Shown here: piece by piece, positions 28,869 to 63,707 of the stretch
Position numbering within the stretch: the stretch's first letter is position 1
Layout: the number at the start of each line of letters is the position of its first letter
Source: an uncultured bacterium
Lineage (GTDB): Bacteria; Hydrothermota; Tepidihabitantia; Tepidihabitantales; DTDR01
Assembly (NCBI GenBank): GCA_964505415.1
Contig: CAZDHW010000009.1
Span: 1,102-65,101, forward strand
Direction: 5' to 3'
Length of the DNA: 64,000 nt
The notes under the pieces: generated by a model
Database searches by the model: none
What the model saw: the letters and a program-made list of their open reading frames with translations, nothing else
Told to the model about the DNA's origin: nothing
Program-made: the position numbers and the translations under genes

Positions 28869-28874
28869 GTAACG

Positions 28875-31875: not shown

Positions 31876-31878
31876 AAA

Positions 31879-43976: not shown

Positions 43977-44679
43977 AAAAAACTTTAACTACCTCACCGG
44001 TGGTAATTTTTTTACCCGAAGATAAAATTAATGAATAATCATCAGCAATATCTAAACAAATATCAATAATTTCTTTGTTGGGCAAAGCAACTCTTATTTT
44101 TTTATTTTTCAAATAATTCCTTGCCTTTAAAAAATTAACCAGTTCTTCTTTTTCAATTTTTTTAAAAAAACTTTTATAAAAAATATTTTCTAATAGCAAA
44201 TATCTTTCATAAGTAGTTATTGTTCTTCGGAGAATCATTTTTAAAGAAATAGCTTTCTCCAAAAAAGAAGGAAAGCAATCTTCGTTAACATTTATTCCGC
44301 AACCAACAATTAAAAAATTGTTTTCTTTCTCCGCCAAAATGCCACACAATTTTTTATCTTGATAATAAATATCGTTAGGCCATTTTATTTGCAACTTTTC
44401 TTTTAAATTAAACAATTCTTCACAAGAAAGAACAACGCTTTTAACAATGTGAAAAACAATATCAAATATGGTTGAATTATAAAGAAAATTTTCTTCTAAA
44501 TTCAAAAGAAAGGAAAAATATAAACCGCCTTCAGGTGAATACCAAGTCCTTTGAAAACGACCATAACCTTTTTCTTGACTTTTTGCCACAATTATTAAAT
44601 CTTTTTTAAAAGGAATAAAACTTTTTGCTAAAATTTGAGTACTATCAACTTTATTTAAGAAGAAGATACTTTTTACCAT
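43969..44679 (-). CDS. birA: Biotin--[acetyl-CoA-carboxylase] ligase (BirA catalytic domain, no N-terminal HTH)
   Basis: KSQEKGYGRFQRTWYSPEGGLYFSFLL, compare the GRGRRGR.W.S..G..L.S motif. KWPNDIY. Confidence 0.7.
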   Translation of the reverse strand: MVKSIFFLNKVDSTQILAKSFIPFKKDLIIVAKSQEKGYGRFQRTWYSPEGGLYFSFLLNLEENFLYNSTIFDIVFHIVKSVVLSCEELFNLKEKLQIKWPNDIYYQDKKLCGILAEKENNFLIVGCGINVNEDCFPSFLEKAISLKMILRRTITTYERYLLLENIFYKSFFKKIEKEELVNFLKARNYLKNKKIRVALPNKEIIDICLDIADDYSLILSSGKKITTGEVVKVFYE

Positions 44680-46144
44680 TGAGAAAGTAAATACCCTTCG
44701 ATAGTTTCTTTGATAATTGAGAGGAATTTATTTTTTGGCCAAAAATATTATAAATTCCTTTTTCTTTTTTTCTTTCATAAACAATTTCTTCGATTGCTGG
44801 CGAAGTAGTATTTAAAAATAAAAGATTGCCATTTACTCTATCCCAATTAGTAACTCCTAAATCGCAACAAGGTGAATAGGTATAGTTAATTCTGATGGTT
44901 TCGCCAATATTTGGTGTGAAAGAGAAAGTTAAATAACCAGTAAGATAATCAAAAGTGTATTCATTAGGAGTTAATCTCCTTTCACCAACAAATATCTGAT
45001 TCAATTTTAGCAAAGGAATTTTTAAATTAAACAGCTTTCTTTCACCATTACCCACTCTTATTTCAGTAGTATCTATTAAATGGTCGTTTCTTAAACAACC
45101 AAACATAATATTTTCACAAACCAAATTTCTTCCCCAATTATAAGACCATTGGGGAGTCGGTAAATAAGAACCGGAAAAGTTTTCAAAAACGCAAATCGAT
45201 TCCCACCAACCACCACAAGCTAACTCTAAATAACCATCGCCATTAAGGTCGCCGAAAGAGACGCTGGAGGAATAGCGGGTATTGGTTAATAAAGTAAAAG
45301 CGGGAATAGTATCTAAAATACCATTATTATTCTGATAAACAAGAACGCAAGAACGGTCACCGGATAATTGGCCATTGTTAGCCACTGCTATATCCAAAAA
45401 ACCATCGTTATTATAATCGCCAATTGCTAATCTTAAAACCCAGCCTGGCTGCGAAAAAGTTATGGTTGGATTGGAGGGCAATCTTCCATTATCAGAGAGA
45501 TAGATATTTATCTTCCTCCGATGACCAACTATTAAATCTAAATAGCCATCATTATTTATATCAACAAATCTTATGGCATCAGAAGGGGAACTATCGGAAG
45601 AAACCCAAAAAGGAAGGGTATCAAAAATCCCGTTATTATTTTTATAAATTCTTGCCGGCTCTCTTATTTGGTTATAGGCATCGCCACAAGCAACTGCCAA
45701 ATCTAAATCACCATCTAAATCAAAATCACCAAGACAACAATCAAAAGAATGTAAATTTTCCGAAGATTGCCAAAAAGGAGTGGGAATAAGGCCTCTGCCG
45801 TTATTTAAATAAATCCTTATCTTGCCACTAATATTCCCAATGCCTAAATAACTTACCGCCATATCTAAATACCCATCGTTATTAACGTCGCCAAGATAGA
45901 GATGTCCAAACATTCCTGAATCGTTACTTCGCCAAGAAGCTTCTCTTTCTAATTCACCACCAAAATTAAAATAAATAGCATTTTTATTATAAGCCATATC
46001 ATTCCCATTAGAAGTAATAAAATCAAGATAACCATTATTATCAATATCCCAAAAAGCTCCCCCAGTAGAATAATCATTATCAATAGAAAGCCAAGAAGGA
46101 GAGTTAGGCAAGGGAATTAAAAAGAAAAGAAAAAGAGCAAGCAT
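44651..46144 (-). CDS. FG-GAP repeat protein with C-terminal T9SS (Por) sorting domain
   Basis: Repeated DxNxDGxxD calcium-binding FG-GAP units (DINNDGYLDLIV, GDYNNDGFLDIAV, GDLNGDGYLELA, GDFDLDGDLDLAV). Signal peptide. C-terminal LSKGIYFLNGKKYLLLK tail typical of T9SS CTD. Confidence 0.65.
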   Translation of the reverse strand: MLALFLFFLIPLPNSPSWLSIDNDYSTGGAFWDIDNNGYLDFITSNGNDMAYNKNAIYFNFGGELEREASWRSNDSGMFGHLYLGDVNNDGYLDMAVSYLGIGNISGKIRIYLNNGRGLIPTPFWQSSENLHSFDCCLGDFDLDGDLDLAVACGDAYNQIREPARIYKNNNGIFDTLPFWVSSDSSPSDAIRFVDINNDGYLDLIVGHRRKINIYLSDNGRLPSNPTITFSQPGWVLRLAIGDYNNDGFLDIAVANNGQLSGDRSCVLVYQNNNGILDTIPAFTLLTNTRYSSSVSFGDLNGDGYLELACGGWWESICVFENFSGSYLPTPQWSYNWGRNLVCENIMFGCLRNDHLIDTTEIRVGNGERKLFNLKIPLLKLNQIFVGERRLTPNEYTFDYLTGYLTFSFTPNIGETIRINYTYSPCCDLGVTNWDRVNGNLLFLNTTSPAIEEIVYERKKEKGIYNIFGQKINSSQLSKKLSKGIYFLNGKKYLLLK

Positions 46145-47726: not shown

Positions 47727-48569
47727 ATGGCCGAAGAAAAATATTGTGACCTTCATATTCATACTATTTTTTCTGATGGACTTTATACTCCCGAAGAAGC
47801 AGTAAGAAAAGCAAAAGAATTGAATTTCTCCGCAATTGCCATCGCTGACCACGATGCCGTCTCCGGTATTGAAAGAGCTGAAAAAGAAGGGGAAAAAATA
47901 GGAATGGAAGTAATACCCGCCTGTGAATTTTCCTGTTTAATGAAAAATAAGGATGTTCACATTTTAGCTTATTTTTTAGATTATAAAAACGAAAAACTTA
48001 ACGATTTTTTGAAAAAGGTACAAAATAAAAGGATTGAAAGGGCAGAAAAGATTATCGGCAATCTCCGAGAGCAAGGAATAAAAATTGAATTAAAAAGAGT
48101 ATTAGAAGTAGCCAAGAACGGAGCGGTTGGCCGTCCTCATATTGCCCAGGTATTATTAGAAGAAGGTTATGTCCAAACCATTGAAGAAGCTTTTATGAAA
48201 TTTATTGGCTATCATTGTCCGGCTTATGTCCCAAAAATGGAGATAAGTCCAGAAGAGGCTTTAAAAATTATAAAAGATTTTAAAGGCATTTCGATTCTTG
48301 CCCATCCGGTAGCTTATGATTTTTCGGAGATTATTTTCCCCCTAATAAAAATGGGTATAATGGGCATTGAGGTTTATCATCCTGACCATAATGAAGAAAA
48401 TACCAAATATTTTTTAGAAATTGCCCAAAAATACGGTCTCTTAATTACTGGGGGCTCTGACTGCCATGGCGGCAGAAAGGGAAAACTTTTCTTAGGCGAA
48501 ATAAAATTGCCTTATTTTCATCTTTCCAAATTAAAAGATAAAAAGAAAGAAGTTTTTGGTGATATATAG
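47727..48569 (+). CDS. PHP-family metal-dependent phosphoesterase (TrpH/YciV-like)
   Basis: CDLHIHTIFSDG...AIADHD His/Asp metal ligands. HPDHNEE. GGSDCHG. 280 aa. Confidence 0.75.
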   Translation: MAEEKYCDLHIHTIFSDGLYTPEEAVRKAKELNFSAIAIADHDAVSGIERAEKEGEKIGMEVIPACEFSCLMKNKDVHILAYFLDYKNEKLNDFLKKVQNKRIERAEKIIGNLREQGIKIELKRVLEVAKNGAVGRPHIAQVLLEEGYVQTIEEAFMKFIGYHCPAYVPKMEISPEEALKIIKDFKGISILAHPVAYDFSEIIFPLIKMGIMGIEVYHPDHNEENTKYFLEIAQKYGLLITGGSDCHGGRKGKLFLGEIKLPYFHLSKLKDKKKEVFGDI

Positions 48570-49341: not shown

Positions 49342-49974
49342 TTATTCCAAAAGATAGACATCTACCTCCATACCATGTTTTATACCGGCATTTTTAAAAC
49401 TGTGATGATTATGTTTATAACCTAAAAAAATATCTATCTTTCTCCCTTTTATTTCACTGCCAATATCATGGGCATAGAAAATTCCGTTATGGCTTTCTTT
49501 TTCATTAATTTTTAAACCAAAGATATTGGGGATATACAATATTGAACCGAGTTTAATAAAATTAGAATCGACGGCTATTGATTTTAAAGGCGTTAATTTA
49601 AACCCATATCCCAAGGGTTTATCAACAATTTTTACCTTATCTTTTTTCTTTAAATAAGAAATAATCCTTCCGTCCCTTAATTTGGCACAAGATTCAATTT
49701 TAAAATCTTTCACAAAATCTATTGGGAAATAACCAAGAAGTCGACCATCTTCTAAGTATAAAGGAACTTTTCTCTTACCGGTGTAATATTCTTCTTCCAC
49801 TATCCAGTAAAAACTTACTTTAAACTTTCCTAAATACCTACCCTGATTTAAAGATGTCTTCTGAGGAAGAGGTTTCATAATAAAAGAGGGGGTTAAAGGC
49901 TTTTCTAATCTTAAGGGTGTACAGAAAAAAATTAATATTATTGAAAATATAATAATAAATAAATATACTCTCAT
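49342..49974 (-). CDS. 3D-domain protein (MltA-like C-terminal domain), secreted
   Basis: Signal peptide. AVDSNFIKLGSILYIP...FYAHDIGSEIKGRKIDIFLG matches the three-Asp 3D domain signature. Confidence 0.55.
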   Translation of the reverse strand: MRVYLFIIIFSIILIFFCTPLRLEKPLTPSFIMKPLPQKTSLNQGRYLGKFKVSFYWIVEEEYYTGKRKVPLYLEDGRLLGYFPIDFVKDFKIESCAKLRDGRIISYLKKKDKVKIVDKPLGYGFKLTPLKSIAVDSNFIKLGSILYIPNIFGLKINEKESHNGIFYAHDIGSEIKGRKIDIFLGYKHNHHSFKNAGIKHGMEVDVYLLE

Positions 49975-50127
49975 AGCCCACCCCTTTTTAAATTGTTTAA
50001 ATTTTAAAGAATTTTTATAAAAAAGTCAAATAGAAAATAAGGGTAAGATAAAAAGGGGTTATTCGTTATATATAATGAAGGGTTTTTTAACAAAAATTAG
50101 GGGAGCTGTATAGGATATGGTATACTT

Positions 50128-52002
50128 TTACTTTATCTTTATTATCTTTTTTATTTTACCATTTTTATTTATAAAATAAATACCTCTATTTAAGGAATTT
50201 AACTCTTTATTTTTTATCTCTTGCCCTAAGTAATTGAAAATTCTTAACTTATTATATTGGAAATTTTTATCAATATTATTATAAGCAATTCCACTCCCTC
50301 TTAAAAAATAGGTTAGACCATCCAAATCAAAACCAGCATAAGGTAAGTTATTAGAACCACTATTAACATCAACAATTTTTATGTAATAAACGCTATCCAA
50401 AGGAGAATTACTGAGGTCAAAGCCGCTTGTCCCTAAACCCCTTCCTAAATAATACCAATTAGAAAGGTCTAAAGAGACATAACAATCATAAAATTCATCG
50501 CCATCAACAGGAGCTTCATAAACTATAAAATCGATACCATTGCCATTTCTTAGTGGCCATTTTTTTTCTAATTCTAAGACTATCTCGCCACCAAAACATA
50601 AGGAATAAAATAAAGAATCTGGAGGTCCTAAGCAATCGGTTGTTAAAGTAGGATTGGCTGAATCTTGGATTGTTCTTTTTACATAATATAAACGAGTGGC
50701 AAAACCAATAGGCTCTTCTTGAGGAATAAGTTTTATAAGAATTTCGGCAGAAGTATCAGAAGGTACATAAATATCCTCTATTATCTTTGGTTTATAACCG
50801 ACTGAATAAACCTTTAGGCTATATCTTCCTTCGGGTAATGGTTTATAAAAATCTCCTAAATAAGGGTCATTATAAACATGCCATCTTTTCGGTGAGTAAA
50901 AGGTAATAACTGCCGGGATCGGTGTATTATTTAAAGAATCAACCACCTTTCCTTTTATCCCCTTTCCCATTATTCTTAAGATATAAAGAATAGCCCGATA
51001 ATTTGCCTCACAAATAGAATCGATCTGACTTGGAGAAGTAGGTTGCTGAGTCTCAATGGTCCAGGCAAGAGTTCCAAAGTTGCCAAAAAGATAATCCTGG
51101 GAAGAACCTCTTACCATATACCAATCATAACCATTTATCGGTATTAACCGGGTAGTAGAAGAACCATAGGTTGAATCGGCATAATTTTGAGAAAGATAGA
51201 TTATATAATTAGAATCTGGCGGGTCTTTCTTATGAAAATCCCATAAATAATTAACATAAGAAGCCGCTGAATGGTAATCAAAAGAGAAAGAGAAATTATT
51301 CTTTAATGACAATTCTCTCATCAATTTCGTTTCAACTTGGGAAAAAGGTGCTGGGCTATTTCCACTTCCCGCCCACATATAGCCATAATCTCTATTTAAA
51401 TCTACATTATTATGATTATACCGGCGATTTCTCACATAACCATCAGGATTTAAAATCGGAATAATCCAAATCTCTCTATTATTTACAAGATAATTTATTA
51501 AAGGGTTTTCATAATATTCACTTAAAAGTCTTTTTATATAATATAAACAGATAACTGTTGAGATTTTTTCATTACCGTGATGGCAACCGGTAAATCTTAT
51601 TTCCGGCTCTTCCTCTTCTATTAAAGGATTATCGGTTATTTTCATTGCGATAATCGGATAATTATTAACCGATCCCAATGTTTCTAATTTACTAATCTCC
51701 GGATAACTTCTCTGTAAGGAATCTAATTCTCTTAACACCTCTTCAAAAGTTGGATACTGTAAAGAGATTTCTCGTATTCTCTCTTCATAATCTTCGCTAA
51801 TAATTGCTATTTTATAGCCAGCCTTTTTCAATTTTAAAAATCCTTCATCATTAGTTAAAATAAAGAGAAACTTCTCTTCCCGATTTATGATATCTAAGCC
51901 CATTTCGCTAATTTTTATAATATCCGAATAATCTTTTATTTCAACCCGAATAAGTCTTTGGGAATTAAAAGCAAAAATTAAAAGAAGAAGAAAATAACCC
52001 AT
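50128..52002 (-). CDS. M14-family zinc carboxypeptidase with C-terminal T9SS sorting domain
   Basis: HxxE zinc motif FTGCHHGNE, NPDGY, downstream His/Glu. C-terminal SLNRGIYFINKNGKIKKIIKIK T9SS CTD-like tail. Signal peptide. Confidence 0.7.
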   Translation of the reverse strand: MGYFLLLLIFAFNSQRLIRVEIKDYSDIIKISEMGLDIINREEKFLFILTNDEGFLKLKKAGYKIAIISEDYEERIREISLQYPTFEEVLRELDSLQRSYPEISKLETLGSVNNYPIIAMKITDNPLIEEEEPEIRFTGCHHGNEKISTVICLYYIKRLLSEYYENPLINYLVNNREIWIIPILNPDGYVRNRRYNHNNVDLNRDYGYMWAGSGNSPAPFSQVETKLMRELSLKNNFSFSFDYHSAASYVNYLWDFHKKDPPDSNYIIYLSQNYADSTYGSSTTRLIPINGYDWYMVRGSSQDYLFGNFGTLAWTIETQQPTSPSQIDSICEANYRAILYILRIMGKGIKGKVVDSLNNTPIPAVITFYSPKRWHVYNDPYLGDFYKPLPEGRYSLKVYSVGYKPKIIEDIYVPSDTSAEILIKLIPQEEPIGFATRLYYVKRTIQDSANPTLTTDCLGPPDSLFYSLCFGGEIVLELEKKWPLRNGNGIDFIVYEAPVDGDEFYDCYVSLDLSNWYYLGRGLGTSGFDLSNSPLDSVYYIKIVDVNSGSNNLPYAGFDLDGLTYFLRGSGIAYNNIDKNFQYNKLRIFNYLGQEIKNKELNSLNRGIYFINKNGKIKKIIKIK

Positions 52003-52006
52003 TATC

Positions 52007-53161
52007 TTAAAGGGTTGGTGGGAATCTTCCTTTAATAAGTTCTAAAGCAATAATCTGTTTTTGGATCTCGTTCGTTCCTTCATAGATTTGAGTTATTTTC
52101 GCATCTCTCATCATCTTTTCTACCGGATAATCTTTCATATAGCCGTAACCACCAAAAAGTTGGACAGCCTTTGTTGTTACTTCCATCGCCACATCCGAGG
52201 CAAAAAGTTTTGCCATAGAAGAAAGAGCCGAAATATTTTTGGCACCGCTATCACACACTTTTGCCGCATAATAAACCAGTTGGCGAGCCGCTTCAATTTT
52301 GGTTGCCATCTCCGCTAACATAAATTGAATACCTTGGAAAGAGGCTATTGGTTGACCAAATTGTTTTCTCTGTTTTACATAGTTTAAAGCCTCTTCAAAG
52401 GCACCTTGAGCAATTCCCACCGCTTGCGCTCCTACTCCGGGTCTGGTTTTATCAAATGTTTGCATAATATAGAGAAAACCCATTCCTTCTTTTCCTAAAA
52501 GGTTTTCCTTAGGCACGCGACAATTATCAAAAATCACCTCAGTCGTCTTTGCTGCTCTAATTCCCATTTTGTTTTCCTCTTTACCAAAAGAAAGACCAGG
52601 AGTCCCTTTTTCCACAATAAAACAAGAAAGTCCTCGGGCACCCTTTTTCTTATCAGTAGAGGCAACTACCACATAAATATCAGCCACACTACCATTAGTG
52701 ATAAACTGTTTTACTCCGTTTAAAACATAATAATCTCCATCCTTTTCGGCAGTCGTTTGGACATTGCTGGCATCACTACCAGCCTCCGCTTCTGTCAGAC
52801 AAAAGGCACCAATAGCACCATCAGCAAACATTTTTAAATATTTTCTCTTTTGTTCTTCATTACCAGCAATGATAATTGGAAAAGAAGCCAAACCACAAGC
52901 CGCATAAGAAACACCGACACCACCGCATACTCGGGATATCTCTTCCACTACTAAGGACATCGCAAAAACCCCGCCACCAAATCCTCCGTATTCTTCGGGA
53001 ATATAAACCCGGAAAAGGTCCATCTTCGCCATTTCTTTTAAAATTTCAAAGGGATATTCACTTTTTTCATCCAATATTTGTCTTACTGGTTTTATCTTTT
53101 CTTCGGCAAATTGTCTTACCAAATTTTTTATCATTTTTTGTTCTTCTGTCAAAAAAAGCAT
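52007..53161 (-). CDS. Acyl-CoA dehydrogenase (butyryl-CoA dehydrogenase-like)
   Basis: Full-length ACAD pattern: GAFCLTEAEAGSDA, catalytic YEGTNEIQ, FAD-binding regions. 384 aa. Confidence 0.9.
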   Translation of the reverse strand: MLFLTEEQKMIKNLVRQFAEEKIKPVRQILDEKSEYPFEILKEMAKMDLFRVYIPEEYGGFGGGVFAMSLVVEEISRVCGGVGVSYAACGLASFPIIIAGNEEQKRKYLKMFADGAIGAFCLTEAEAGSDASNVQTTAEKDGDYYVLNGVKQFITNGSVADIYVVVASTDKKKGARGLSCFIVEKGTPGLSFGKEENKMGIRAAKTTEVIFDNCRVPKENLLGKEGMGFLYIMQTFDKTRPGVGAQAVGIAQGAFEEALNYVKQRKQFGQPIASFQGIQFMLAEMATKIEAARQLVYYAAKVCDSGAKNISALSSMAKLFASDVAMEVTTKAVQLFGGYGYMKDYPVEKMMRDAKITQIYEGTNEIQKQIIALELIKGRFPPTL

Positions 53162-53171
53162 CTTTCCCTCC

Positions 53172-54083
53172 TTAATTAAATCTTTCTTTTATATCCTCAC
53201 TAACATTTTTTAAAGCCACCAAAAGTTCGTCCCTGACTTTTAAAAAGGCATCGTAATCTAATCCAATGGGGTCAAAAAGATCTTCACCGTTTTTTTGCGG
53301 ATAACCTTTAATCAAAAAAAGCTTATCCTCACATTCCGGAAAAAGAGCAGTTAAATAATAATAATGATTTTTTTCGGCACAAAGAATTAAATCAGCTTCT
53401 TTAATCATATCCTCGGAAACCGACTTTGCCAAATGACCGCTAATATCAATGCCAATCTCCTTTAATGCCTTTTCAGCATAAGAAGAAGGTGGTGAATTGT
53501 TTAATGCTTGGGTACCGGCGGAATAGATAAAAACCGGATAATCTTTTAAATAAGCCTCCAAAATTCCTTTCGCCATTGGACTCCGGCAGGTATTACCGGT
53601 ACAAACCACGAGAATATTAAACCAGTAATTGCGGCTGATTTTTATTTTTCTTTTTAATTTTGCTTCCAAGGCGTATAAGGAAAAGGAACCTCGCTTTAAA
53701 AGGTAAATATCCTTATCAATCTTGATATGGGTCCAATTTCTTATTTTAAAAGGTTCTTTAAAATTTTTCTCAATCTTATACCTTTTTTTCAAAAAATTTA
53801 CTAATTCCGAAAAATCAAGAAGAAAATCTTTTTCCCGATATTCTAAAAAATAATATCTTTCTAAAAGAGAGGTCTCTTTTTCTGATAGGTTAAAAAAATA
53901 TTGATTTTGGTGAAGAATAATCAAGGGCGCCAACTCTTTTAATTCCTCTAAAGGCTCTTTTCTCAAGGTAATTATCGGCGAATCATTTAAATTCAACTCT
54001 CTTTTAAGTTCTTCCAAATTTTCTTCTTTTTCACTACCGATTAAAAGATTATCTTTAACTTTTAGAAGTATTATTTTCTTCAT
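53172..54083 (-). CDS. LMW-PTP-family phosphatase with YwlE-type (phosphoarginine phosphatase) P-loop, fused to about 150 aa N-terminal unknown domain
   Basis: P-loop VVCTGNTCRSPMAKG (C-x5-R with Thr in CTGNTCRS as in B. subtilis YwlE; pTyr LMW-PTPs have Ile). DP loop FDPIGLDYD. N-terminal 150 aa has no recognisable motif. Confidence 0.65.
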   Translation of the reverse strand: MKKIILLKVKDNLLIGSEKEENLEELKRELNLNDSPIITLRKEPLEELKELAPLIILHQNQYFFNLSEKETSLLERYYFLEYREKDFLLDFSELVNFLKKRYKIEKNFKEPFKIRNWTHIKIDKDIYLLKRGSFSLYALEAKLKRKIKISRNYWFNILVVCTGNTCRSPMAKGILEAYLKDYPVFIYSAGTQALNNSPPSSYAEKALKEIGIDISGHLAKSVSEDMIKEADLILCAEKNHYYYLTALFPECEDKLFLIKGYPQKNGEDLFDPIGLDYDAFLKVRDELLVALKNVSEDIKERFN

Positions 54084-55359
54084 AATCTATCCCTTTTTTA
54101 CCAATATCGCTCCTAAATTGCATACCTTCAAAGTAGATTTCTTTTATCAAAGAGTAGGCATTTGCTTGGGCTTCTTTCAAGGTATTACCGAGACCACAAA
54201 CATTTAAAACTCGACCACCGCTGGTATAAAATTCGTTATCTCTCTTTTCAGTACCCGCATGGAAGATAATATTTTTCTCCTCTTCAATCTCCTTTTTTAA
54301 AGTAATCTTCTTTCCTTTTTCGTATTGATAAGGATAGCCAGCAGATGCCAAAACTACGCAAAGACAACTTTTATCATAAAATTCCAGTTCTTTTTTTAAA
54401 TTCTTCTCCTTTGCTAAAAGAATTATTTCTAATAAATCGCTTTTTAATAAGGGTAAAATTACCTGGGTTTCGGGGTCACCAAAACGAACATTAAATTCCA
54501 AAACATATAAATCTTCTTCGGTAAGCATTATTCCTGCATAAATAACACCACAATAAAAAATTCCTTCTTTTTCTAAACCAAAAAGTAAAGGCTTGAAAAT
54601 TTTTTCATAAGCTTTTAATATTAATTCTTTTTTAAAAAAAGGTACGGGTGAATAGGCTCCCATACCGCCGGTATTTGGTCCTTCATCATTATCTAAAAGT
54701 CTTTTATGGTCTTGGGAAGGTAAGAAAAGTAAAAGATTTTCGCTGTCGGTAATACCAATTAAACTTACTTCCTTTCCAAAAAGGCATCTTTCAATAACTA
54801 TCTTTTCTCCGGCTTTTCCCAATTTTTGATTGATAAGCAAATCGTCAATAACCTTAAAAGTACTTTCTTTATCTTTTAAAACAAAAGAGCCTTTACCGAA
54901 ACAAAGGCCATCAGCTTTAACCACGCAAAAATTATCTTTTTTCAACAAAGATAAAGCATAATCTTTTGCCTTTTTTATCTCATTTTCCGTAAACACCTCA
55001 AATTCGGCAGTTTTTATGCCGTATTTTTTCATAAACTCTTTGGCAAAAACCTTACTACCTTCTAAAAGACTCGCTTTTTTATTAGGGCCGAAAACCTTGA
55101 TACCTTTGGCTTCTAAGAAATCAGTAATCCCTAAGGATAACGGTTCTTCCGGACCAACAACTACTAAATCAATTTTTTTCTCTAAGGAAAATTTTAAAAT
55201 ATTTTCAAAATCATTAACCGGAATTTTTTCAACAAAGGCAATTTCCGAAATACCCCCGTTTCCCGGAAGAGCATAGACTTCCTTAACCAAAGAAGATTTT
55301 TTTATTTTCCAAACCAAGGCATGTTCCCGACCACCGCCACCAATTACCAGAACTTTCAT
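54055..55359 (-). CDS. purD: Phosphoribosylamine--glycine ligase PurD
   Basis: MKVLVIGGGGREHAL. ATP-grasp motifs. C-terminal PurD domain. 434 aa. Confidence 0.9.
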   Translation of the reverse strand: MKVLVIGGGGREHALVWKIKKSSLVKEVYALPGNGGISEIAFVEKIPVNDFENILKFSLEKKIDLVVVGPEEPLSLGITDFLEAKGIKVFGPNKKASLLEGSKVFAKEFMKKYGIKTAEFEVFTENEIKKAKDYALSLLKKDNFCVVKADGLCFGKGSFVLKDKESTFKVIDDLLINQKLGKAGEKIVIERCLFGKEVSLIGITDSENLLLFLPSQDHKRLLDNDEGPNTGGMGAYSPVPFFKKELILKAYEKIFKPLLFGLEKEGIFYCGVIYAGIMLTEEDLYVLEFNVRFGDPETQVILPLLKSDLLEIILLAKEKNLKKELEFYDKSCLCVVLASAGYPYQYEKGKKITLKKEIEEEKNIIFHAGTEKRDNEFYTSGGRVLNVCGLGNTLKEAQANAYSLIKEIYFEGMQFRSDIGKKGIDYEENNTSKS

Positions 55360-55366
55360 AAATTTT

Positions 55367-56140
55367 TTAGCGGTTTTTCAACTTTTCTAAGATTTTCTCT
55401 TTCCTAAAAGATAATTTCTTTACTTTTGGCTCCGCTTCAATATAGAAAGTGTGGTCTTCTGGTGAATACAAGGCGTTAAAGAAACCATAGCCAAATCCTT
55501 TAATATTACCTTTTTCACCCGGCTTCAAAGCCGGTCCAGTACCGGAATAAACCGTAATATTTCCTTCACCAGAAAGAATCTCCGCTACATATCCAGGAAA
55601 AATTCTTTGGGCATCAATTATTAAAAAGGTATCTTTCAAAACGGTATCTAAAGAAAAAGTAAAATCGTCATCTTCACCATTAGGATATAAAAAATCGTAT
55701 TCTATCCAAATAACCACTTCATACCAACTGGCACCTTCACTTTTTTGCCAGATAACTTTAAAAGGAAGCTCGCTTTTTTTGATTATCGTCTCTTCTTTCG
55801 GATAAAGGATTTCAAAATCCTTAGGCATAAAAACTTCACTATAGGCATTGCCCCCTTCATGTTCTATTTTCAATTTATAATTCTTACCGCTTTCAAAGGG
55901 TAAATAGTTTCCATAGAAGGCATAAGTGAAAGGTTCATTTATCAATGGTAAAAGAAGGTCGTTAATAAAAACCTTGGGAATCATTTTAAACCCCTTATAG
56001 TTATACACCACAACCTCTTGGAAATAACGCACATCATCTTTTGTAAATTCCATTTTCGAAACCCAACCCTGAATATAAACTTCTTCTTTTTTTTGACAAA
56101 AGATAAAAAAGATTAAAAGGAAAATTATTTTATCTCTCAT
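55367..56140 (-). CDS. Hypothetical lipoprotein/secreted protein
   Basis: Signal peptide with Cys (LIFFIFCQKKE). No recognisable motif. Confidence 0.35.
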   Translation of the reverse strand: MRDKIIFLLIFFIFCQKKEEVYIQGWVSKMEFTKDDVRYFQEVVVYNYKGFKMIPKVFINDLLLPLINEPFTYAFYGNYLPFESGKNYKLKIEHEGGNAYSEVFMPKDFEILYPKEETIIKKSELPFKVIWQKSEGASWYEVVIWIEYDFLYPNGEDDDFTFSLDTVLKDTFLIIDAQRIFPGYVAEILSGEGNITVYSGTGPALKPGEKGNIKGFGYGFFNALYSPEDHTFYIEAEPKVKKLSFRKEKILEKLKNR

Positions 56141-57257
56141 AATGCATCGGCATTAAAAGATAAAAAATTTCTTCATCACCTTTTATTTCCGAAGGCACAA
56201 TCTTCATCGCGGAAGTGGGTGAAGTGAAATAAATAGTGGCTTTTTCACTATCAACTTTGGAAAGAATTTCTTGAAGATAAACAGCATTGAAAGCAACCTC
56301 CATCTCTTCCCCCACATAACGACCGCTGATTTTCTCCGAACCTTTACCTACTTCTGGAGATTCGCTAAAAAGTTTTATTGCCTCTTCTTTTAAAGAAAGA
56401 ATCACCATTCGCGTCTTATCTTCAACCCGCGAAAATATCGAAACCCTTTTTAAACTTTTTAAGAAATCATCAACTTCAAAAGTATAGTAATTATCTTCGG
56501 CAGTAGGTATCGCCTTTTCGTAATCAGGGAAAGGACCTTCAATCAAACGGGAGATAAAGAAATATTTCTCACCTTCTAAATCATATTCAAAACCAATTCG
56601 CGTATCATCAAAATAGATTTTTACTTCTTTTATATCTTCTAATAGGAGTTCAAAAGCAGTTGGCGGAATAATCAGCGAAATATTTCTATTAATACCTAAT
56701 TCAATTTTCTTTTTATATAAAGCTAAGCGATAACCATCAGTGCCGACAAAACGAAGTTCGTTCTCCCTCACCTCTAAAAGGACACCGGTAAGTGCCGGAC
56801 GAGTCATCTCTTTAGAAACGCAGAAACCGGTTTTTTCAAACATTTCGATCAAAAGACGGTTATCAAAAGAAAAAGAATTCTCCGTTGGTAAGTCTTCTTT
56901 TTTGGGAAAATCTTCCGGGGGTACGGTAATAAATTGGTATTCACCTTTACTTGTTCTTAAAGAAAAATTGTTCTCTTCCAAAGAAACCTCTAAGAGCGGT
57001 TCGGAGATTTCTCTTAAATTTTCTAAAAGCTTTCGGCCAAAAACTACCGCCTCTCCCTTCATTTTAATATTATCTTTTCCCAAATACTTTTCAGTATAAC
57101 ACCAAAAATCTAAATCCGTGGCATAGATAGAAAAATTCTCATCATCGCAAGCAACATAAACATTTTGTAAAATAGGAAAGGTTGCTCGAGCAGGAACAAT
57201 TTTTATTACCCTTTCCAACAACCTTTTAAAAAGCTCGGTACTTATTTTCAATTTCAT
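56130..57257 (-). CDS. dnaN: DNA polymerase III beta subunit (sliding clamp) DnaN
   Basis: Three-domain clamp pattern. N-terminal MKLKISTELFKRLLERV...ILQNVYV. C-terminal LMPM region. 375 aa. Confidence 0.85.
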   Translation of the reverse strand: MKLKISTELFKRLLERVIKIVPARATFPILQNVYVACDDENFSIYATDLDFWCYTEKYLGKDNIKMKGEAVVFGRKLLENLREISEPLLEVSLEENNFSLRTSKGEYQFITVPPEDFPKKEDLPTENSFSFDNRLLIEMFEKTGFCVSKEMTRPALTGVLLEVRENELRFVGTDGYRLALYKKKIELGINRNISLIIPPTAFELLLEDIKEVKIYFDDTRIGFEYDLEGEKYFFISRLIEGPFPDYEKAIPTAEDNYYTFEVDDFLKSLKRVSIFSRVEDKTRMVILSLKEEAIKLFSESPEVGKGSEKISGRYVGEEMEVAFNAVYLQEILSKVDSEKATIYFTSPTSAMKIVPSEIKGDEEIFYLLMPMHYER

Positions 57258-58621
57258 AAAACCTCCTTTAAACCTTTTATTAATAATTTTACTTCTTCTT
57301 CTCTTACGGTTCGCAAATCTAATAAAAGACTATCATTTTCAATTCGTCCATAAATCGGAATTTTCCCTTTTCTCAATCTTTTTGCCAATTCCATAATATT
57401 TTCATTTTTAATTCTTAATAAATAAGTAGGCAATTTTACTCCGGCTAAAGAACCACCACCAATTTCACTCTCCCCTTCAATTATTGTTAATTGGTATTTT
57501 TCTTGCTTATCTTTTAAAGCTCTATAAACTTTTTTAGCCATTTTTTTTATCTCTTCTTTCTTCCTTAAAATCATTCGGATGACTTCATTTTCTTTTAATA
57601 ATTTTTCTTTATCAAAAAAAAGTCTCAAGGTGGCTTCTAAAATTGCCAACCGGGTTTTATCAATTCTTAAGATTCTCATAACGGGACAGGAAGCCAGTTT
57701 TTTTATGAGTTCTTTTTTACCAACAATTATTCCGCATTGGGGACCACCTAAAAGTTTGTCACCCGAAAAACAAACCAAACCGGCTCCTTTTTCAATACTT
57801 TCTTTTACTACCGGCTCTTTGGGTAAACCGAATTGGGAAAAATCAATAAAAGCACCGCTACCCAAATCATCAACCACTGGCAAATTATATTTTTCCCCCA
57901 ATTTTACCAAATCTTCAATAGGTACCTCTTTAGTAAAACCAATAAGGCGATAATTACTTTTATGAACTTTTAAAATCAGCGCGGTATTTTCATTAATTGC
58001 CTGCTCATAATCCCGCAAATGAGTCCGATTGGTAGTGCCAACTTCTTTTAAAATGGCTCCGGCTGATTTCATAATTTCTGGCAGTCGAAAGGCCCCACCA
58101 ATTTCAATCAACTCTCCGCGGGAAACGATAACCTCCCTACCTTCGGCTAAGGCTTTTAAAATCAAAAAAGTGGCACCCGCATTATTATTACACACCAAAC
58201 CAGCTTCAGCACCAGTTAAAGCTATTAATAATTTTTCCACATGACGCATTCGGCTTCCCCGACGTCCATCTTCTTCGTTAATCTCTAAATTACAAAAGCC
58301 ATCAAAAAGCTCACCAATCTTTTCTTTTAAATTTTTGATATAAGGTGCCCTCCCTAAACCAGTATGGAGAATCACACCGAGGGCATTTATCACCTTTTTT
58401 AAACTGGGCGAAACGGCAAAAGAAACATTCTCAATAATTTCTTCCTTATTTACTTCCTTTTTCTTACCGGCTAAAATAGCGCTTCTCAAATTATTAATTT
58501 CTTCCTTTAAAAAAAATAAAACCAGTTCCCGAGGATAAAGAGTTAACAATTCCTTTATTTTTGGTTCTTTTAACAAACCATCTACTGAGGGGATTTTCCT
58601 TAAAATATCTTCATTCACCAT
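57254..58621 (-). CDS. selA: L-seryl-tRNA(Sec) selenium transferase SelA
   Basis: N-terminal ILRKIPSVDGLL (compare E. coli LYSQLPAIDRLL). INALGVILHTGLGRA. VSRGELIEIGGAFRLPEIM. PLP Lys region FSGDKLLGGPQCGIIVGKKELI. Near-colinear with E. coli SelA. Confidence 0.9.
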   Translation of the reverse strand: MVNEDILRKIPSVDGLLKEPKIKELLTLYPRELVLFFLKEEINNLRSAILAGKKKEVNKEEIIENVSFAVSPSLKKVINALGVILHTGLGRAPYIKNLKEKIGELFDGFCNLEINEEDGRRGSRMRHVEKLLIALTGAEAGLVCNNNAGATFLILKALAEGREVIVSRGELIEIGGAFRLPEIMKSAGAILKEVGTTNRTHLRDYEQAINENTALILKVHKSNYRLIGFTKEVPIEDLVKLGEKYNLPVVDDLGSGAFIDFSQFGLPKEPVVKESIEKGAGLVCFSGDKLLGGPQCGIIVGKKELIKKLASCPVMRILRIDKTRLAILEATLRLFFDKEKLLKENEVIRMILRKKEEIKKMAKKVYRALKDKQEKYQLTIIEGESEIGGGSLAGVKLPTYLLRIKNENIMELAKRLRKGKIPIYGRIENDSLLLDLRTVREEEVKLLIKGLKEVL

Positions 58622-59660
58622 CTTGCTTTTTTAAGATTTTCTTAATAATTAGAGCCCTTTTTAAATCCCTTTCTTCAGCGGTAAGCTTTTCGTTTTTTAG
58701 ATAATGCATCAGATTAGCTCTTTTAACTAAAATGTTAAGAATATTAATTGTCAAAAGGGAGATATTTTTTATTATCCCCAAACAGATACCCAAACGGAGG
58801 TTTGATAAAAGATTAATGGCTTCTTCCGAATTTAAAAGCACCGCATTAGTTAAAATTCCATAAGAACGCCAAATCTTATCTTCAATCTCATTTTTTAAAT
58901 TTTTCAAAAGGTAATCCCGTGCTTTCCTTTCGTATTCAATAATCTGGTTTATGAGATTTTTGGTATTTTCAATAATCTCTTTTTCTTCAATACCGATAGT
59001 AAATTGATTACTTATCTGAAAATAACTACCCAAGGCAAGACTTCCTTCACCATAAATTCCTCTTACTAAAAAACCCATATTTTTAGCTGCTCTCACCACT
59101 TTCTCCATTTCGTTAGTCAAAACTAACCCGGGTAGATGAAGCATCACGCTGGCTCGCAAACCAGTGCCCAAATTTGTCGGACAAGCAGTTAAAAAACCAA
59201 ACTTCTCGGAAAAGGCATAGGGCAATTCTTTTTCTAATTTATCATCAATTTCGTTTATCTTTATAAAAATCTCATCCAGAGAAAAACCGGCTTCTAAAAC
59301 CTGCAAGCGGATATGGTCTTCTTCGTTTACCATAATACTAATTTTCTCTTCTTTATCAATAAAAACTGCTTTCTCATTTTTACTCAAAACGAAATCAGGT
59401 GAAACCAAATGTCTTTCCAAAAGATAATTTAAAAAAAATTCATCAAGGTTGTCACTGGTATAAACATTAAAACTATCTAATTTTAAAATGGTTTCTCTTA
59501 ATTCTTCAACAATCTCTTCTTGCTCTTTTTTACTCGCCTTCAAAAGAAAAAGATGGTTTTCTAAATTGCGGGCAAGTCTAATGCGGGAAGAAATACAAAC
59601 ATCCGATTCTTCCCTAATTTCCCTCAAAAAACCCGGCACCAACTCTTTATTCAATTTCAT
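58611..59660 (-). CDS. mcsB: Protein arginine kinase McsB (ATP:guanido phosphotransferase)
   Basis: ISSRIRLARNLEN signature, phosphagen-kinase fold motifs (CPTNLGTGLRASV), C-terminal dimerisation region. Confidence 0.85.
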   Translation of the reverse strand: MKLNKELVPGFLREIREESDVCISSRIRLARNLENHLFLLKASKKEQEEIVEELRETILKLDSFNVYTSDNLDEFFLNYLLERHLVSPDFVLSKNEKAVFIDKEEKISIMVNEEDHIRLQVLEAGFSLDEIFIKINEIDDKLEKELPYAFSEKFGFLTACPTNLGTGLRASVMLHLPGLVLTNEMEKVVRAAKNMGFLVRGIYGEGSLALGSYFQISNQFTIGIEEKEIIENTKNLINQIIEYERKARDYLLKNLKNEIEDKIWRSYGILTNAVLLNSEEAINLLSNLRLGICLGIIKNISLLTINILNILVKRANLMHYLKNEKLTAEERDLKRALIIKKILKKQDGE

Positions 59661-60180
59661 CCTTCTTTAACTCTTCTTCTTTTTCTTTAAGGATATCTCT
59701 AATCTTTGCTGCCCGCTCGTAATCCTCTTCTTCAATCGCTTTATTTAATTCCATTCTTAATTTCTTGATCTCGGAAAGTAAAAGCCCTCTTTTTTTTCCA
59801 ATAGTAACTCTTTTCCCCCGATGAAAAACCTCTTCTTCCTGTTCTTGTATGGTTGATTGAACTTTTTTGATAAAAGGAGTAAGCTTTTCTTCAAAGGCTT
59901 TAAAACAATCGGCACAGCCGAATTTACCGTACTTCTTAAATTCATAAAAAGATAAAAGACACCTTTTACAAACCAATTCTTTTTCTTCTTTCTCTTTAGC
60001 CTTTAACATTATTCTCAACAATTCATTAAGATTTACTGCCTTGCCACTTTCCAAAATTCCCTTTTTCTTGGCACATTCTTCACAAATAGAAATATCTTTT
60101 TTATTCCCTTTCTCATCAATCTCGGTGATCACCATTATGGCGGGATTTTTTTTACAGATTTCGCAAATTTTTTCTTTCAT
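59647..60180 (-). CDS. mcsA: McsA-like protein-arginine kinase activator (zinc-finger pairs + UVR domain)
   Basis: Four CxxC pairs (CEICKK, CEECAKK, CKRCLL, CADCFK). C-terminal UVR-like LNKAIEEEDYERAAKIRDIL. Confidence 0.75.
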   Translation of the reverse strand: MKEKICEICKKNPAIMVITEIDEKGNKKDISICEECAKKKGILESGKAVNLNELLRIMLKAKEKEEKELVCKRCLLSFYEFKKYGKFGCADCFKAFEEKLTPFIKKVQSTIQEQEEEVFHRGKRVTIGKKRGLLLSEIKKLRMELNKAIEEEDYERAAKIRDILKEKEEELKKDEIE

Positions 60181-60872
60181 ATTTTATTTAATTTTCCATC
60201 TTTTAAAAAATATCGCTCATTACAAATCTCCTTTATCTTTTCGTTATGAGAAACAACAATAATAGTCAAATCCCTTTTTTGATAGATTTCCATAATCATT
60301 GATAAAAGCATCTCACTACTTCTCAAATCCAAATTACCGGTTGGTTCATCCAAAAACAAAACTTTCGGTTCACCAACCAAAGCCCGAGCAACACTTACTT
60401 TCTGCCTTTCTCCGCCCGATAAATCTTTCGGGTATAATTTAATTTTATCAAGAATTTCTAATTCTTCAAGAATTTTTAAGGCCTTTCTTTTAGCCACTCC
60501 CTCTTTTTCGCCCCGAATTAATAAGGGAGTCATCACATTCTCCAAAACATTAAATTCGGGCAAAAGATAATGGAATTGAAAAAGGAAACCAAATTTCTCA
60601 TTCCGCAAACGAAAAAGTTCTTCAGCAGTTAATTTTTTTAAATCTTTGCCAAAAACCAAAACCTGCCCTTCCGTAGGATAGTCTAAACCGGAAAGGATAT
60701 GAAGAAGGGTTGATTTTCCACTTCCCGAAGGACCAAAAATTCCGTAAATATTTTTTTCATAAATAGTTAAATCAATCCCTTTAAGAACCTCGGTTTTTGA
60801 ATGATTATCGTAATAAATTTTTTTGATATTAATAGCTTCAATCAATTTATTCATAGCGCAAAGCTTCAACAA
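60177..60872 (-). CDS. lolD: ABC transporter ATP-binding protein (LolD/MacB-type)
   Basis: Walker A GPSGSGKST. Signature LSGGERQKVSVARAL. Walker B LFLDEPTGNLD. H-loop. Paired with FtsX-like permease. Confidence 0.75.
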   Translation of the reverse strand: MLKLCAMNKLIEAINIKKIYYDNHSKTEVLKGIDLTIYEKNIYGIFGPSGSGKSTLLHILSGLDYPTEGQVLVFGKDLKKLTAEELFRLRNEKFGFLFQFHYLLPEFNVLENVMTPLLIRGEKEGVAKRKALKILEELEILDKIKLYPKDLSGGERQKVSVARALVGEPKVLFLDEPTGNLDLRSSEMLLSMIMEIYQKRDLTIIVVSHNEKIKEICNERYFLKDGKLNKI

Positions 60873-62052
60873 CCACTAAGCTACTTGCCTTTTTTGCTGG
60901 GTAAAGAGCGGCTAAAAGGGAAATAGCTAAGGCGATACCGACCGTTAAAAAAATGTCGGTTAAATATAATTTTGTTGGCAGGTATTTAATAAAATAGACA
61001 TCGGCAGGCAGATTAATAATCGGATATTTTGATAAAATAAAAGAAATGATTATCCCAATTATGGCTCCGATTGCCGAACCACAAAGACCAACAAAGAAAC
61101 CATAATAAAGAAAAATCTTCATAACATTTTTCGTTTTTAAACCGATTGCTTTTAAAATACCAATTTCCTTAGTTTTTCTTATCACCAACATTGTTAAAGT
61201 AGCCACAATCCCAAAGCAAGCGATGATAATTAAAAGAGTCAAAACAATAAAGGTAACTACTTTTTCTAATTTCAAGGCGGCAAAAAGATTTTTATTCAAG
61301 GTCTGCCAGTCTAAAGCCCGATAAGGATAGGGAAGTAATTTATTTATCTTCTTTGCCAATTCCCTGGCTTTATAAAGCTCTTTTATTTTTAATTCTAAAC
61401 CAGTCACTTTCTTTTCACATTCCAAAAGTTTTTGGGCTTCCTGCAAATCAATATAGACAAGACTGGCATTATAATCATACATCCCGGCATCAAAAATCCC
61501 TTTCACGATAAAATTTTCCGCTTTGGGTAAATAGCCAAAGGGAGTTTTAATCGTGGCGAAGGGAGAATATAAGGTAACCTGGTCGCCAACAGTAACCCCA
61601 AGAACTTTGGCTAAATCTATTCCTAAGATAATTCCGGGGGAAGAACCGGAAGAAAGGTGAAAATCTCCCAAAATAATATTATTTTTAATATCCAGACTCT
61701 TTCGCTCATTTTCTTCAATCACTCCGCGGAGAACAATCCCATCGGAAGAAGTGGCACTTCTAATGAGTGTCTTGGTAAAAATAAAAGGGCTAACTAAACT
61801 GATTTCTTTTATTCCTTTTATTAAGGCTACCAAAGAATCTACATTGTCAATTAATTCGTAATTTCTTTTAATAATGATGATGTGCGGAGTATGTCCTAAA
61901 ATTCTTTTTTCTAATTCCAAATGGAAACCATTCATCACCGAAAGGACAATAATAATACAGGCAACTCCTAAGGTAACACTACCAATATTTATAAAAGAAA
62001 TCAATTTTTTTCCTTTGATATATTTCCAGGCAACAAATCTCTCAAAACTCAT
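60847..62052 (-). CDS. Lipoprotein-releasing system permease LolC/LolE-like (FtsX/MacB_PCD family)
   Basis: N-terminal TM, large periplasmic MacB_PCD-like domain, three C-terminal TM helices (FtsX). Confidence 0.7.
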   Translation of the reverse strand: MSFERFVAWKYIKGKKLISFINIGSVTLGVACIIIVLSVMNGFHLELEKRILGHTPHIIIIKRNYELIDNVDSLVALIKGIKEISLVSPFIFTKTLIRSATSSDGIVLRGVIEENERKSLDIKNNIILGDFHLSSGSSPGIILGIDLAKVLGVTVGDQVTLYSPFATIKTPFGYLPKAENFIVKGIFDAGMYDYNASLVYIDLQEAQKLLECEKKVTGLELKIKELYKARELAKKINKLLPYPYRALDWQTLNKNLFAALKLEKVVTFIVLTLLIIIACFGIVATLTMLVIRKTKEIGILKAIGLKTKNVMKIFLYYGFFVGLCGSAIGAIIGIIISFILSKYPIINLPADVYFIKYLPTKLYLTDIFLTVGIALAISLLAALYPAKKASSLVVVEALRYE

Positions 62053-63707
62053 CGCTCTTTTAACTGGGGGAAAAGAATCACCTCTCTTATGGCCGACTGA
62101 TTGGTCAATACCATTACCAATCGGTCAATACCAATTCCTAAACCACCACTGGGAGGCATCCCGTATTCTAAGGCTTTAATAAAATCTTCATCCAAGGGCG
62201 TTTCATCTTCTTTCAATTTTAGCAATTCCAAAAAACTCTCTTTCTGTCTTATTGGGTCATTCTCTTCGGAAAAGGCATTACCCAATTCTATTCCGCCAAT
62301 AAAAACTTCAAACCTTTCACATAAAAGGGGATTTTCCCGATGGGGTTTAGCCAAAGGAGTGGTAAATTTTGGATGGTCACAAACAAAGGTTGGTTGGATT
62401 AAATATTTTTGAATTAAAAAAGAAAAAAGTTTATCAATCAGTTTAGTTCGGGTTATTGCTTCTTTCACTTCTATACCCAATTCCGAAGCCTTTTTTTTCA
62501 AATCGGAAAAAGAAGCCGTAAGAATATCCATTCCCAATTTTTCGTTTAAAACTGAACAGAATTTTATCCTTTTAAAAGGAATTTGGGCCGAGATTAAAAA
62601 TTCAATCTCCCAATAACGGTCATTTTTTTTCCCCTCAAAATAATTCAAATTTTTCTGCTGACAAAAATTGATTAATTGTTGACAGGAATCAAGATAAGCT
62701 TTCTCTTCTTTCTCCTTTTCTTTTAAATAATAAATGTTAATCTTATTAATTGCTATTCCTTGGGCTAACAAATCTTCAATCCGCGGAAAAATCTCTTTAA
62801 AATTCCCTTCTTCGTAATAAAACTTTTCCGAATAAAAAAAGTTTTCTTGGTTATATAAATTTTTTACCAAATAAAGAAAGAGTTCTTCAAATAATTGCAT
62901 CATTGTCTCATAATCGGCATAGGCTTGATAGATTTCAATCTGGGTAAATTCGGGTGAGTGAAACCGGCTTATCCCTTCATTACGAAAATCTTTACCAATC
63001 TCAAAAACCTTTTCAAAATTACCAACCAGTAATCGCTTCAAATATAATTCATCGGAAATCCTTAGATAAAATTCTTTATTTAGACTCTCATAAAAGGTCT
63101 TAAAAGGGGTGGCAAAGGCTCCACCATAAAGGGGTTGTAAAATTGGGGTTTCCACTTCTAAAAAACCTTTATTCTGTAAGAATTCTCTAATAAGGGCAAT
63201 TATTTTACTCCTTTTGATAAAAATCTCCCTCACCTCTTCATTATTCAACAAATCCAAATATCTTTGACGATAACGAAGTTCCACATCTCTAATGCCGTGA
63301 TATTTTTCCCCAAAAGGTCTTAAAGCCTTTGCCAGCAAGGTGAAATCTTTAACCAGGATAGTAATTTCACCGGTTTTGGTTTTAAAGACTTCGCCAACGA
63401 CACCAATAAAATCACCAATATCAAAAAAATCTAATAACTGATACTTATCTCCCAAAACATCCTTCCTTAAATATAACTGGATTTTATCATAACCATCGGC
63501 TAAGGTATAAAACTTGGTTTTACCGAAATCCCTTTCTAAAAAAATCCGACCAGCAACTTTCACTTCGGTTTTATTTTGGCAAAGTTGGTCAAAATTATTT
63601 TTAACTTCTTGGGTGGTGTGGGTTCTTTCAAAAAAATAAGGATAGGGATTAATCTTTAACCCTTTTAACTCTTCAATCTTTTTCTTTCTAATTTCGTATT
63701 CATCCAT
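62049..63707 (-). CDS. lysS: Lysine--tRNA ligase, class II (LysS) with about 50-aa internal insertion
   Basis: N-terminal OB-fold anticodon-binding domain. Class II motifs 1 to 3 (FLEVETPILQ, GGLGIGIDRLVMVLT). 552 aa, longer than typical. Confidence 0.9.
   Translation of the reverse strand: MDEYEIRKKKIEELKGLKINPYPYFFERTHTTQEVKNNFDQLCQNKTEVKVAGRIFLERDFGKTKFYTLADGYDKIQLYLRKDVLGDKYQLLDFFDIGDFIGVVGEVFKTKTGEITILVKDFTLLAKALRPFGEKYHGIRDVELRYRQRYLDLLNNEEVREIFIKRSKIIALIREFLQNKGFLEVETPILQPLYGGAFATPFKTFYESLNKEFYLRISDELYLKRLLVGNFEKVFEIGKDFRNEGISRFHSPEFTQIEIYQAYADYETMMQLFEELFLYLVKNLYNQENFFYSEKFYYEEGNFKEIFPRIEDLLAQGIAINKINIYYLKEKEKEEKAYLDSCQQLINFCQQKNLNYFEGKKNDRYWEIEFLISAQIPFKRIKFCSVLNEKLGMDILTASFSDLKKKASELGIEVKEAITRTKLIDKLFSFLIQKYLIQPTFVCDHPKFTTPLAKPHRENPLLCERFEVFIGGIELGNAFSEENDPIRQKESFLELLKLKEDETPLDEDFIKALEYGMPPSGGLGIGIDRLVMVLTNQSAIREVILFPQLKER

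Follow-up and report, generated by a model that had tools for sequence, protein, structure and literature searches.

The locus examined here raises the question of why a protein tyrosine phosphatase of low molecular weight (LMW-PTP) should carry some 150 additional residues at its N terminus, and which phosphorylated residue it removes. The gene lies on a 64,000-nucleotide stretch of contig CAZDHW010000009.1 (assembly GCA_964505415.1), called the window below, from an uncultured bacterium of the WOR-3 candidate phylum, and encodes 303 amino acids (aa). A first-pass annotation had proposed a phosphoarginine (pArg) phosphatase joined to a new accessory domain. We consider it likely that the protein is a YwlE-type phosphatase, probably acting against pArg written by the kinase McsB, with a dead relic of the threonylcarbamoyl-AMP (TC-AMP) synthase TsaC inherited from a purD-linked fusion. 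The accessory domain did not hold up, as a series of decaying homologues, profile similarity and synteny with purD point to a TsaC relic.

By every sequence criterion, aa 155-303 are a sound YwlE-type LMW-PTP. The Pfam model LMWPc (PF01451) spans aa 157-292 (E 1.2e-28), and phmmer aligns the domain to Bacillus subtilis YwlE (4kk3/1zgg; E 1.2e-19) without gaps through the P-loop, matching C161, T165, C166, R167 and D271-P272 to YwlE C7, T11, C12, R13 and D118-P119. The P-loop VVCTGNTCRSPMA (V159-A171) described in the first-pass annotation, with the CTGNTCRS of YwlE, is indeed present, and its threonine does occupy the Thr11-equivalent position, with the DP loop aligned as well; C161...R167-S168 matches YwlE C7...R13-S14 in the P-loop pattern C-X5-R-(S/T). 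The catalytic Cys and Arg and D271-P272 are invariant across 58 homologues, and CTGNTCRS itself is common, being found in 101 of the 120 best homologues. Among solved structures, phmmer ranks a T. tengcongensis LMW-PTP first (4egs; 1e-23), followed by five YwlE entries (1e-19 to 3e-18, including 4kk3, 1zgg and 4pic) and, behind these, AmsI and Wzb (5e-14 to 1e-11). Similarly, a full-length AlphaFold2 model built from 58 homologues (predicted local distance difference test, pLDDT, 93.9; predicted template modelling score, pTM, 0.90) retrieves 4pic, 4etn, 4egs, 4kk4 and 4kk3 at the first ranks of a Foldseek search of the PDB. Its matches to Geobacillus/Bacillus YwlE (4pic/4etn/4kk3) have E ~1e-15, target template modelling (TM) scores of 0.88-0.92 and a root mean square deviation of 1.5 Å, and Wzb comes next. 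Close relatives are already labelled 'low molecular weight protein arginine phosphatase' by the NCBI pipeline. Membership in the thioredoxin-coupled pI258 type of ArsC was considered and rejected, with scores of 56.8 against a cutoff of 215 and 48.3 against 174.3, and no conserved Cys pair; C235 and C251 of the protein are not kept in relatives.

The residue at the position of YwlE Thr11 steers selectivity, Thr towards pArg and Ile towards phosphotyrosine (pTyr), and the guanidinium group is recognized by Thr11 together with Asp118 (PMC8001253; bioRxiv 10.64898/2026.01.13.697720). With Thr165 at this position, the window protein is probably a pArg phosphatase, as far as sequence can tell.

The N-terminal region offers no such direct match. 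For aa 1-155 there was no Pfam or NCBIfam hit, PF01300 and TIGR00057 included, at E≤1, and a hidden Markov model (HMM) trained on 22 fused YrdC domains reached an E-value of 1.9 against it. Homologues of the whole protein, sorted into tiers by length, identity and Pfam content, are more informative. The first tier comprises nine WOR-3 proteins of 303-306 aa that match over the full length at 62-94% identity, and the second comprises P0010-P0015, of 316-345 aa and about 40% identity, whose N-terminal region likewise lacks a Pfam match. An intermediate third tier (P0017 and P0018; 352-353 aa) is followed by a fourth, with many proteins of 345-368 aa in which PF01300 (Sua5/YciO/YrdC) precedes PF01451. 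For example, the fourth-tier protein P0021 passes TIGR00057, the model for L-threonylcarbamoyladenylate synthase (175.5 against a cutoff of 123.2), and its E-values against the structures of MTH1692 and TsaC/Sua5 range from 1e-29 to 1e-25.

In an alignment of these forms (A1), the intact proteins carry PTDTVYG, a K-x-R motif, PGPLT, TSAN-SG and STVIDL…LRKG. KxR and SxN are gone from P0017/P0018, and P0010-P0015 retain just LLPYR…, FP(A/T)SL and FT(I/V)L…LEKKG. The group of the window protein begins at the first strand, is without PTDTVYG and KxR at the aligned positions and has lost about 45 central residues to deletion, the SxN (TSAN) segment among them. It keeps P53, T118 and G132 at aligned YrdC positions and preserves the linker (R/K)KIK(I/L)…F.(I/V)L.VC. 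As the catalytic motifs of TsaC are gone from this region, the protein could not synthesize TC-AMP. A still shorter TsaC relic, of about 110 aa, is found in P0063, and TsaC may have decayed more than once.

Profile comparisons connect these stages. With hhalign, P0010-P0015 match the intact YrdC domains (E 1.3e-7, 165 columns) and the window group matches P0010-P0015 (E 0.002); the two combined match the intact domains (E 3.9e-5, 66 columns), and the window group matches all longer forms pooled (E 8e-4, 142 columns). In a column-shuffle control, the window group scored 25.9 against P0010-P0015, compared with 12.9 ± 2.2 and a maximum of 20.7 in 60 shuffles (z ~6). The signal is concentrated in aa ~86-154, matching the C-terminal strand-strand-helix of YrdC plus the linker, so that homology to YrdC appears well supported in this part and weak in aa 1-85. 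Most likely, the N-terminal 154 aa are the worn-down, inactive TsaC/YrdC remnant of a TsaC-LMW-PTP fusion. A literature search for such fusions found no paper.

Gene order leads to the same ancestor. The start of the gene falls within the end of purD in all orthologues examined, which holds for relatives of 84% (L001/L002) and 63% identity (L003/L004), for forms of the P0010-P0015 type (L005, L006, L008) and for the intact TsaC fusion P0021 (L007). From this shared position, the window gene and the intact tsaC-LMW-PTP fusion belong to one orthologue group. The downstream acyl-CoA dehydrogenase gene is retained out to the P0010-P0015 tier. At a Zixibacteria locus (L010), tsaC and the LMW-PTP are separate overlapping genes. 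Other fusions of the phosphatase were also observed, namely a verrucomicrobial triple fusion of about 730 aa with RpiB and serine hydroxymethyltransferase (SHMT; L022:9956-12151, also in L014, L015, L019, L024 and L031) and a fusion with a Gcn5-related N-acetyltransferase (GNAT; L020:720-1541). These fusions echo the B. subtilis gene order ywlC(tsaC)-ywlE-ywlF(rpiB)-glyA.

The relic is nonetheless maintained. Compared with the gene at L001, the ratio of nonsynonymous to synonymous substitution rates (dN/dS) is 0.14 for aa 1-154 (0.17 for aa 1-85 and 0.11 for aa 86-154) and 0.07 for the phosphatase domain, the N-terminal region evolving about twice as fast. There is no internal ATG ahead of the P-loop from which the phosphatase could be expressed by itself. 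Being translated and under purifying selection, the relic is not junk. Its pLDDT is about 90 in the full-length model and 46 when modelled alone, with a similar alignment (A3); this gap may mean either that the relic is dependent on the phosphatase domain or that the confidence value varies with the way in which the alignment was made. The pTM of the full-length model suggests a fixed arrangement of the two domains.

The window gene belongs to a minus-strand string in the order lysS, a lolE-like gene, a lolD-like gene, mcsA, mcsB, selA, dnaN, a gene for a 257-aa protein, purD, the phosphatase gene and the genes for an acyl-CoA dehydrogenase and an M14 peptidase. As had been reported, it is the fifth gene after mcsB on the same strand in a tightly packed string, every junction overlapping or with a gap of ≤10 nucleotides (nt). 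McsB scores 410.5 bits against the 385 cutoff of the NCBIfam equivalog for protein arginine kinase (NF002194), and McsA is similar to NF053706 yet under its cutoff (105.8 against 210). A promoter and terminator scan of positions 49900-64000 found nothing beyond shuffle expectation. The mcsA-mcsB pair lies upstream only in L001-L003, which have the whole 12-gene string of the window. The earlier proposal that the protein is the cognate eraser of McsB stands in part, favoured by YwlE-type sequence and fold, by Thr165 and by McsB in the genome; the supporting argument from linkage extends only to close relatives, of 64% identity or more.

Several observations weigh against the reading as a McsB-opposing phosphatase with a TsaC relic. 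Leu, Ser, Val or Ala replaces the Thr at the YwlE T11 position in syntenic fusions that are intact or partly decayed (P0019/P0021, P0017/P0018, P0023 and P0025), and the WOR-3 protein P0063 (265 aa) has Cys there (CTGNCCRS), so the pArg-selectivity residue is not fixed within the orthologue group. In L005-L008, mcsA-mcsB is absent within 7-10 kb of the orthologue, and the 40%-identity orthologues and the intact fusions retain purD alone on the upstream side. We also sampled, as the matches listed, 80 loci of other GTDB species with a GNTCRSPM-type LMW-PTP, no WOR-3 genome among them. In 26 of these a YrdC domain is fused, and in another 26 it is encoded by the gene immediately upstream; 6 have one nearby and 22 lack it. 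The purD gene occurs in 6/80, and mcsB lies within 10 kb in none (0/80). With tsaC fused or adjacent in 52/80, the conserved partner of the phosphatase family is tsaC, not mcsB, and with mcsAB linkage confined to close relatives the argument from a common gene string carries little weight. The presence of McsB in the genome remains relevant to a pArg function. Finally, aa 1-85 alone show no significant similarity to P0010-P0015 (14.6 against 12.1 ± 2.1) and a merely borderline one to intact YrdC (19.6 against 11.0 ± 2.1; E 0.013), and their register differs between MAFFT and hhalign.

The behaviour of aa 1-85 bears on the proposal that the N-terminal 150 aa are a truly new domain recruited to an arginine phosphatase, which we regard as very unlikely. 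It agrees with the missing Pfam and NCBIfam matches, with a pairwise BLAST comparison to the N-terminal region of P0015 that was not significant, and with a phmmer search in which aa 1-155, compared with 1.84 billion representatives, retrieved only the protein's own cluster and P0121. The latter, a eukaryotic C-type-lectin repeat protein, is spurious, having matched aa 29-65 through 'KNLNDSPSITT' repeated six times, and its E-value is inflated because the matching segment is repeated. However, the region sits exactly where the TsaC domain lies in syntenic orthologues, its last ~70 residues align with profile support to the YrdC C-terminal strand-strand-helix and linker, and intermediate stages of decay are present; a new domain survives, weakly, for aa 1-85 alone. 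Tyrosine phosphatase activity deserves consideration since the window also encodes a Wzc-like bacterial tyrosine kinase (BY-kinase; 31879-33969, +) with a Walker A motif and a C-terminal end formed by the tyrosine cluster YHNYYYYHYKY (KKYHNYYYYHYKYRKEK). We consider it quite improbable that the protein is, or also is, the Wzb equivalent for this kinase. The polysaccharide cluster at 21451-33969 holds no phosphatase gene, a search for another LMW-PTP found none in the 64-kb window, to which this outcome is limited, and Wzb structures are the next-best fold matches. On the other hand, the selectivity site is Thr165, not Ile, the protein scores 62.7 with the NCBIfam Wzb model, whose cutoff is 243, and the gene lies some 19 kb from the kinase on the other strand. 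Linkage to wzc was seen in no relative examined, and the genome outside the window may hold a Wzb- or CpsB-type phosphatase. The Thr, the scores and the missing wzc linkage speak above all against a Wzb-like role as the main function.

The neighbourhood sample itself suggests a further possibility, that the main role of the phosphatase family is tied to the tsaC/rpiB/glyA neighbourhood, with a part in translation or N6-threonylcarbamoyladenosine (t6A), instead of McsB, the relic keeping a binding function from that setting. The contrast between tsaC and mcsB among the matches listed, the recurrent RpiB, SHMT and GNAT fusions and the purifying selection on the relic would all fit. We nevertheless hold it to be quite unlikely, as B. 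subtilis YwlE, in the same neighbourhood, is established by experiment as the pArg phosphatase opposing McsB, gene neighbourhood alone does not define a substrate, and the ligand-binding motifs of TsaC are gone from the relic. It is also unlikely, in our view, that the relic is a maintained pseudoenzyme that lends the phosphatase a new regulatory or docking function (for example for t6A partners, tRNA or McsB substrates) and that the tsaC-ywlE pairing reflects an unrecognized functional coupling between t6A synthesis and the phosphatase family.

Under the favoured reading of a YwlE-type phosphatase with a TsaC relic, the protein would be a cytosolic two-domain protein. Within its C-terminal 149 aa, Cys161 would act as the nucleophile, Arg167 and Ser168 as the phosphate cradle, Asp271 as the general acid and Cys166 as a redox partner that might permit redox control, while Thr165 would favour pArg over pTyr. 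As in YwlE, pArg on McsB substrates would be hydrolysed through a Cys161 phospho-enzyme intermediate with the help of Asp271. The ancestor would have been a tsaC-ywlE fusion gene linked to purD, whose TsaC half, in the WOR-3 lineage, shed its first helix, some 45 residues of its centre and both catalytic motifs, KxR and SxN; what is left would persist as a folded appendage that probably serves the phosphatase domain as a structural or regulatory partner. As the relic lacks TsaC catalysis, TC-AMP would have to come from a separate TsaC/Sua5 encoded elsewhere in the genome. No TsaC/Sua5 gene lies within the 64-kb window, and a search for a stand-alone WOR-3 TsaC with the intact YrdC domain of P0021 returned generic TsaC proteins only, which is uninformative for WOR-3.

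Among known systems, the protein is most readily set beside YwlE of B. subtilis and G. stearothermophilus and PtpB of S. aureus, with which it shares the LMW-PTP fold, a P-loop identical in CTGNTCRS, Thr at the position of T11, the second Cys and the general-acid DP loop; as for YwlE, the genome also encodes a McsB kinase. Unlike YwlE, a single-domain protein of about 150 aa to which it is 32-35% identical, it adds the 154-aa N-terminal relic, belongs to a WOR-3 host, not a Firmicute, and is known from sequence. The TsaC(YrdC)-LMW-PTP fusions (PF01300 plus PF01451, ~350-370 aa, with Sua5-type forms of ~480-530 aa), annotated as 'threonylcarbamoyl-AMP synthase', have the same domain order, linker (…RKG…LE…G.K(I/V)KL…F.(I/V)L.VC) and post-purD position and are orthologous by synteny, whereas the window protein is without helix 1, PTDTVYG, KxR, SxN and the ~45 central residues and matches no TsaC model. 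Wzb, Etp and AmsI resemble it in fold and in the catalytic Cys, Arg and Asp, yet have a hydrophobic (Ile-type) selectivity residue and adjoin wzc/wza, and the window protein matches them less well than YwlE (1e-13 against 1e-19).

Table 1. Positions in the window of the phosphatase gene, its parts and its partner genes.
Feature	Position	Strand	Remarks
Whole open reading frame, 303 aa: probable pseudo-TsaC relic plus YwlE-type LMW-PTP	53172..54083	-	ATG start; AlphaFold2, Pfam, phmmer
N-terminal region, aa 1-154, most likely a catalytically dead YrdC/TsaC relic	53622..54083	-	alignment A1, hhalign
C-terminal LMW-PTP domain, aa 155-303, YwlE type	53175..53621	-	Pfam PF01451, phmmer, Foldseek
P-loop V159-VCTGNTCRSPM-A171 (VVCTGNTCRSPMA)	53571..53609	-	C161 nucleophile, T165 selectivity residue, C166 second Cys, R167 (predicted roles)
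DP loop D271-P272, predicted general acid	53268..53273	-	aligned with YwlE D118-P119
purD, conserved upstream partner of the orthologue group	54055..55359	-	29 nt overlap with start of the phosphatase gene
mcsA-mcsB, protein arginine kinase and activator, putative opposing kinase	58611..60180	-	4.5 kb upstream, same gene string
mcsA	59647-60180	-	resembles NF053706
mcsB	58611-59660	-	passes NF002194 cutoff

Other genes of the window were noted in passing. The 257-aa protein between dnaN and purD (55367-56140, -) has a hydrophobic N-terminus, is without a Pfam or NCBIfam match and is conserved at this place in L001 and L003. The selenocysteine synthase gene selA (57254-58621, -) overlaps both of its neighbours, mcsB and dnaN; this operon context is unusual, and the presence of selA implies selenoprotein synthesis in the source organism. 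The polysaccharide cluster encodes a flippase, a Wzy-like protein, glycosyltransferases, a DegT aminotransferase, an epimerase and an SLBB export fragment besides the kinase, and is followed by a hybrid histidine kinase and a response regulator. A PHP-domain protein (47727-48569, +) resembles 3',5'-nucleoside bisphosphate phosphatase and RNase RNM, under both cutoffs, and by its scores is not a CpsB-type tyrosine phosphatase. An FG-GAP repeat protein (44651-46144, -) and the M14 carboxypeptidase (50128-52002, -) have C-terminal ends of the type IX secretion system (T9SS) type, resembling Por_Secre_tail, and Por_Secre_tail matches also occur in neighbouring loci of relatives. The gene at L008:192-2558 (-), for a ClpC-like AAA+ protein with two Clp_N repeats, lies on the strand opposite to the P0012 orthologue and 7.4 kb upstream of it, possibly by coincidence.

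No known principle is overturned by this locus, and the kind of phosphatase is one that automatic annotation already names. What appeared to be a new accessory domain becomes a more ordinary story, in which the synthase half of an ancestral TsaC-YwlE fusion decayed in one WOR-3 lineage. McsA, McsB and a YwlE-type phosphatase are documented together in a Gram-negative-type candidate phylum, and the source of TC-AMP synthase activity in these genomes becomes a question. The homologues, as a natural series in the decay of TsaC, could reveal which part of TsaC the phosphatase needs. Furthermore, in about two thirds of the loci listed, across many phyla, tsaC is fused to the phosphatase gene or adjoins it, which on the unlikely reading given above would reflect a functional coupling between t6A synthesis and the phosphatase family.
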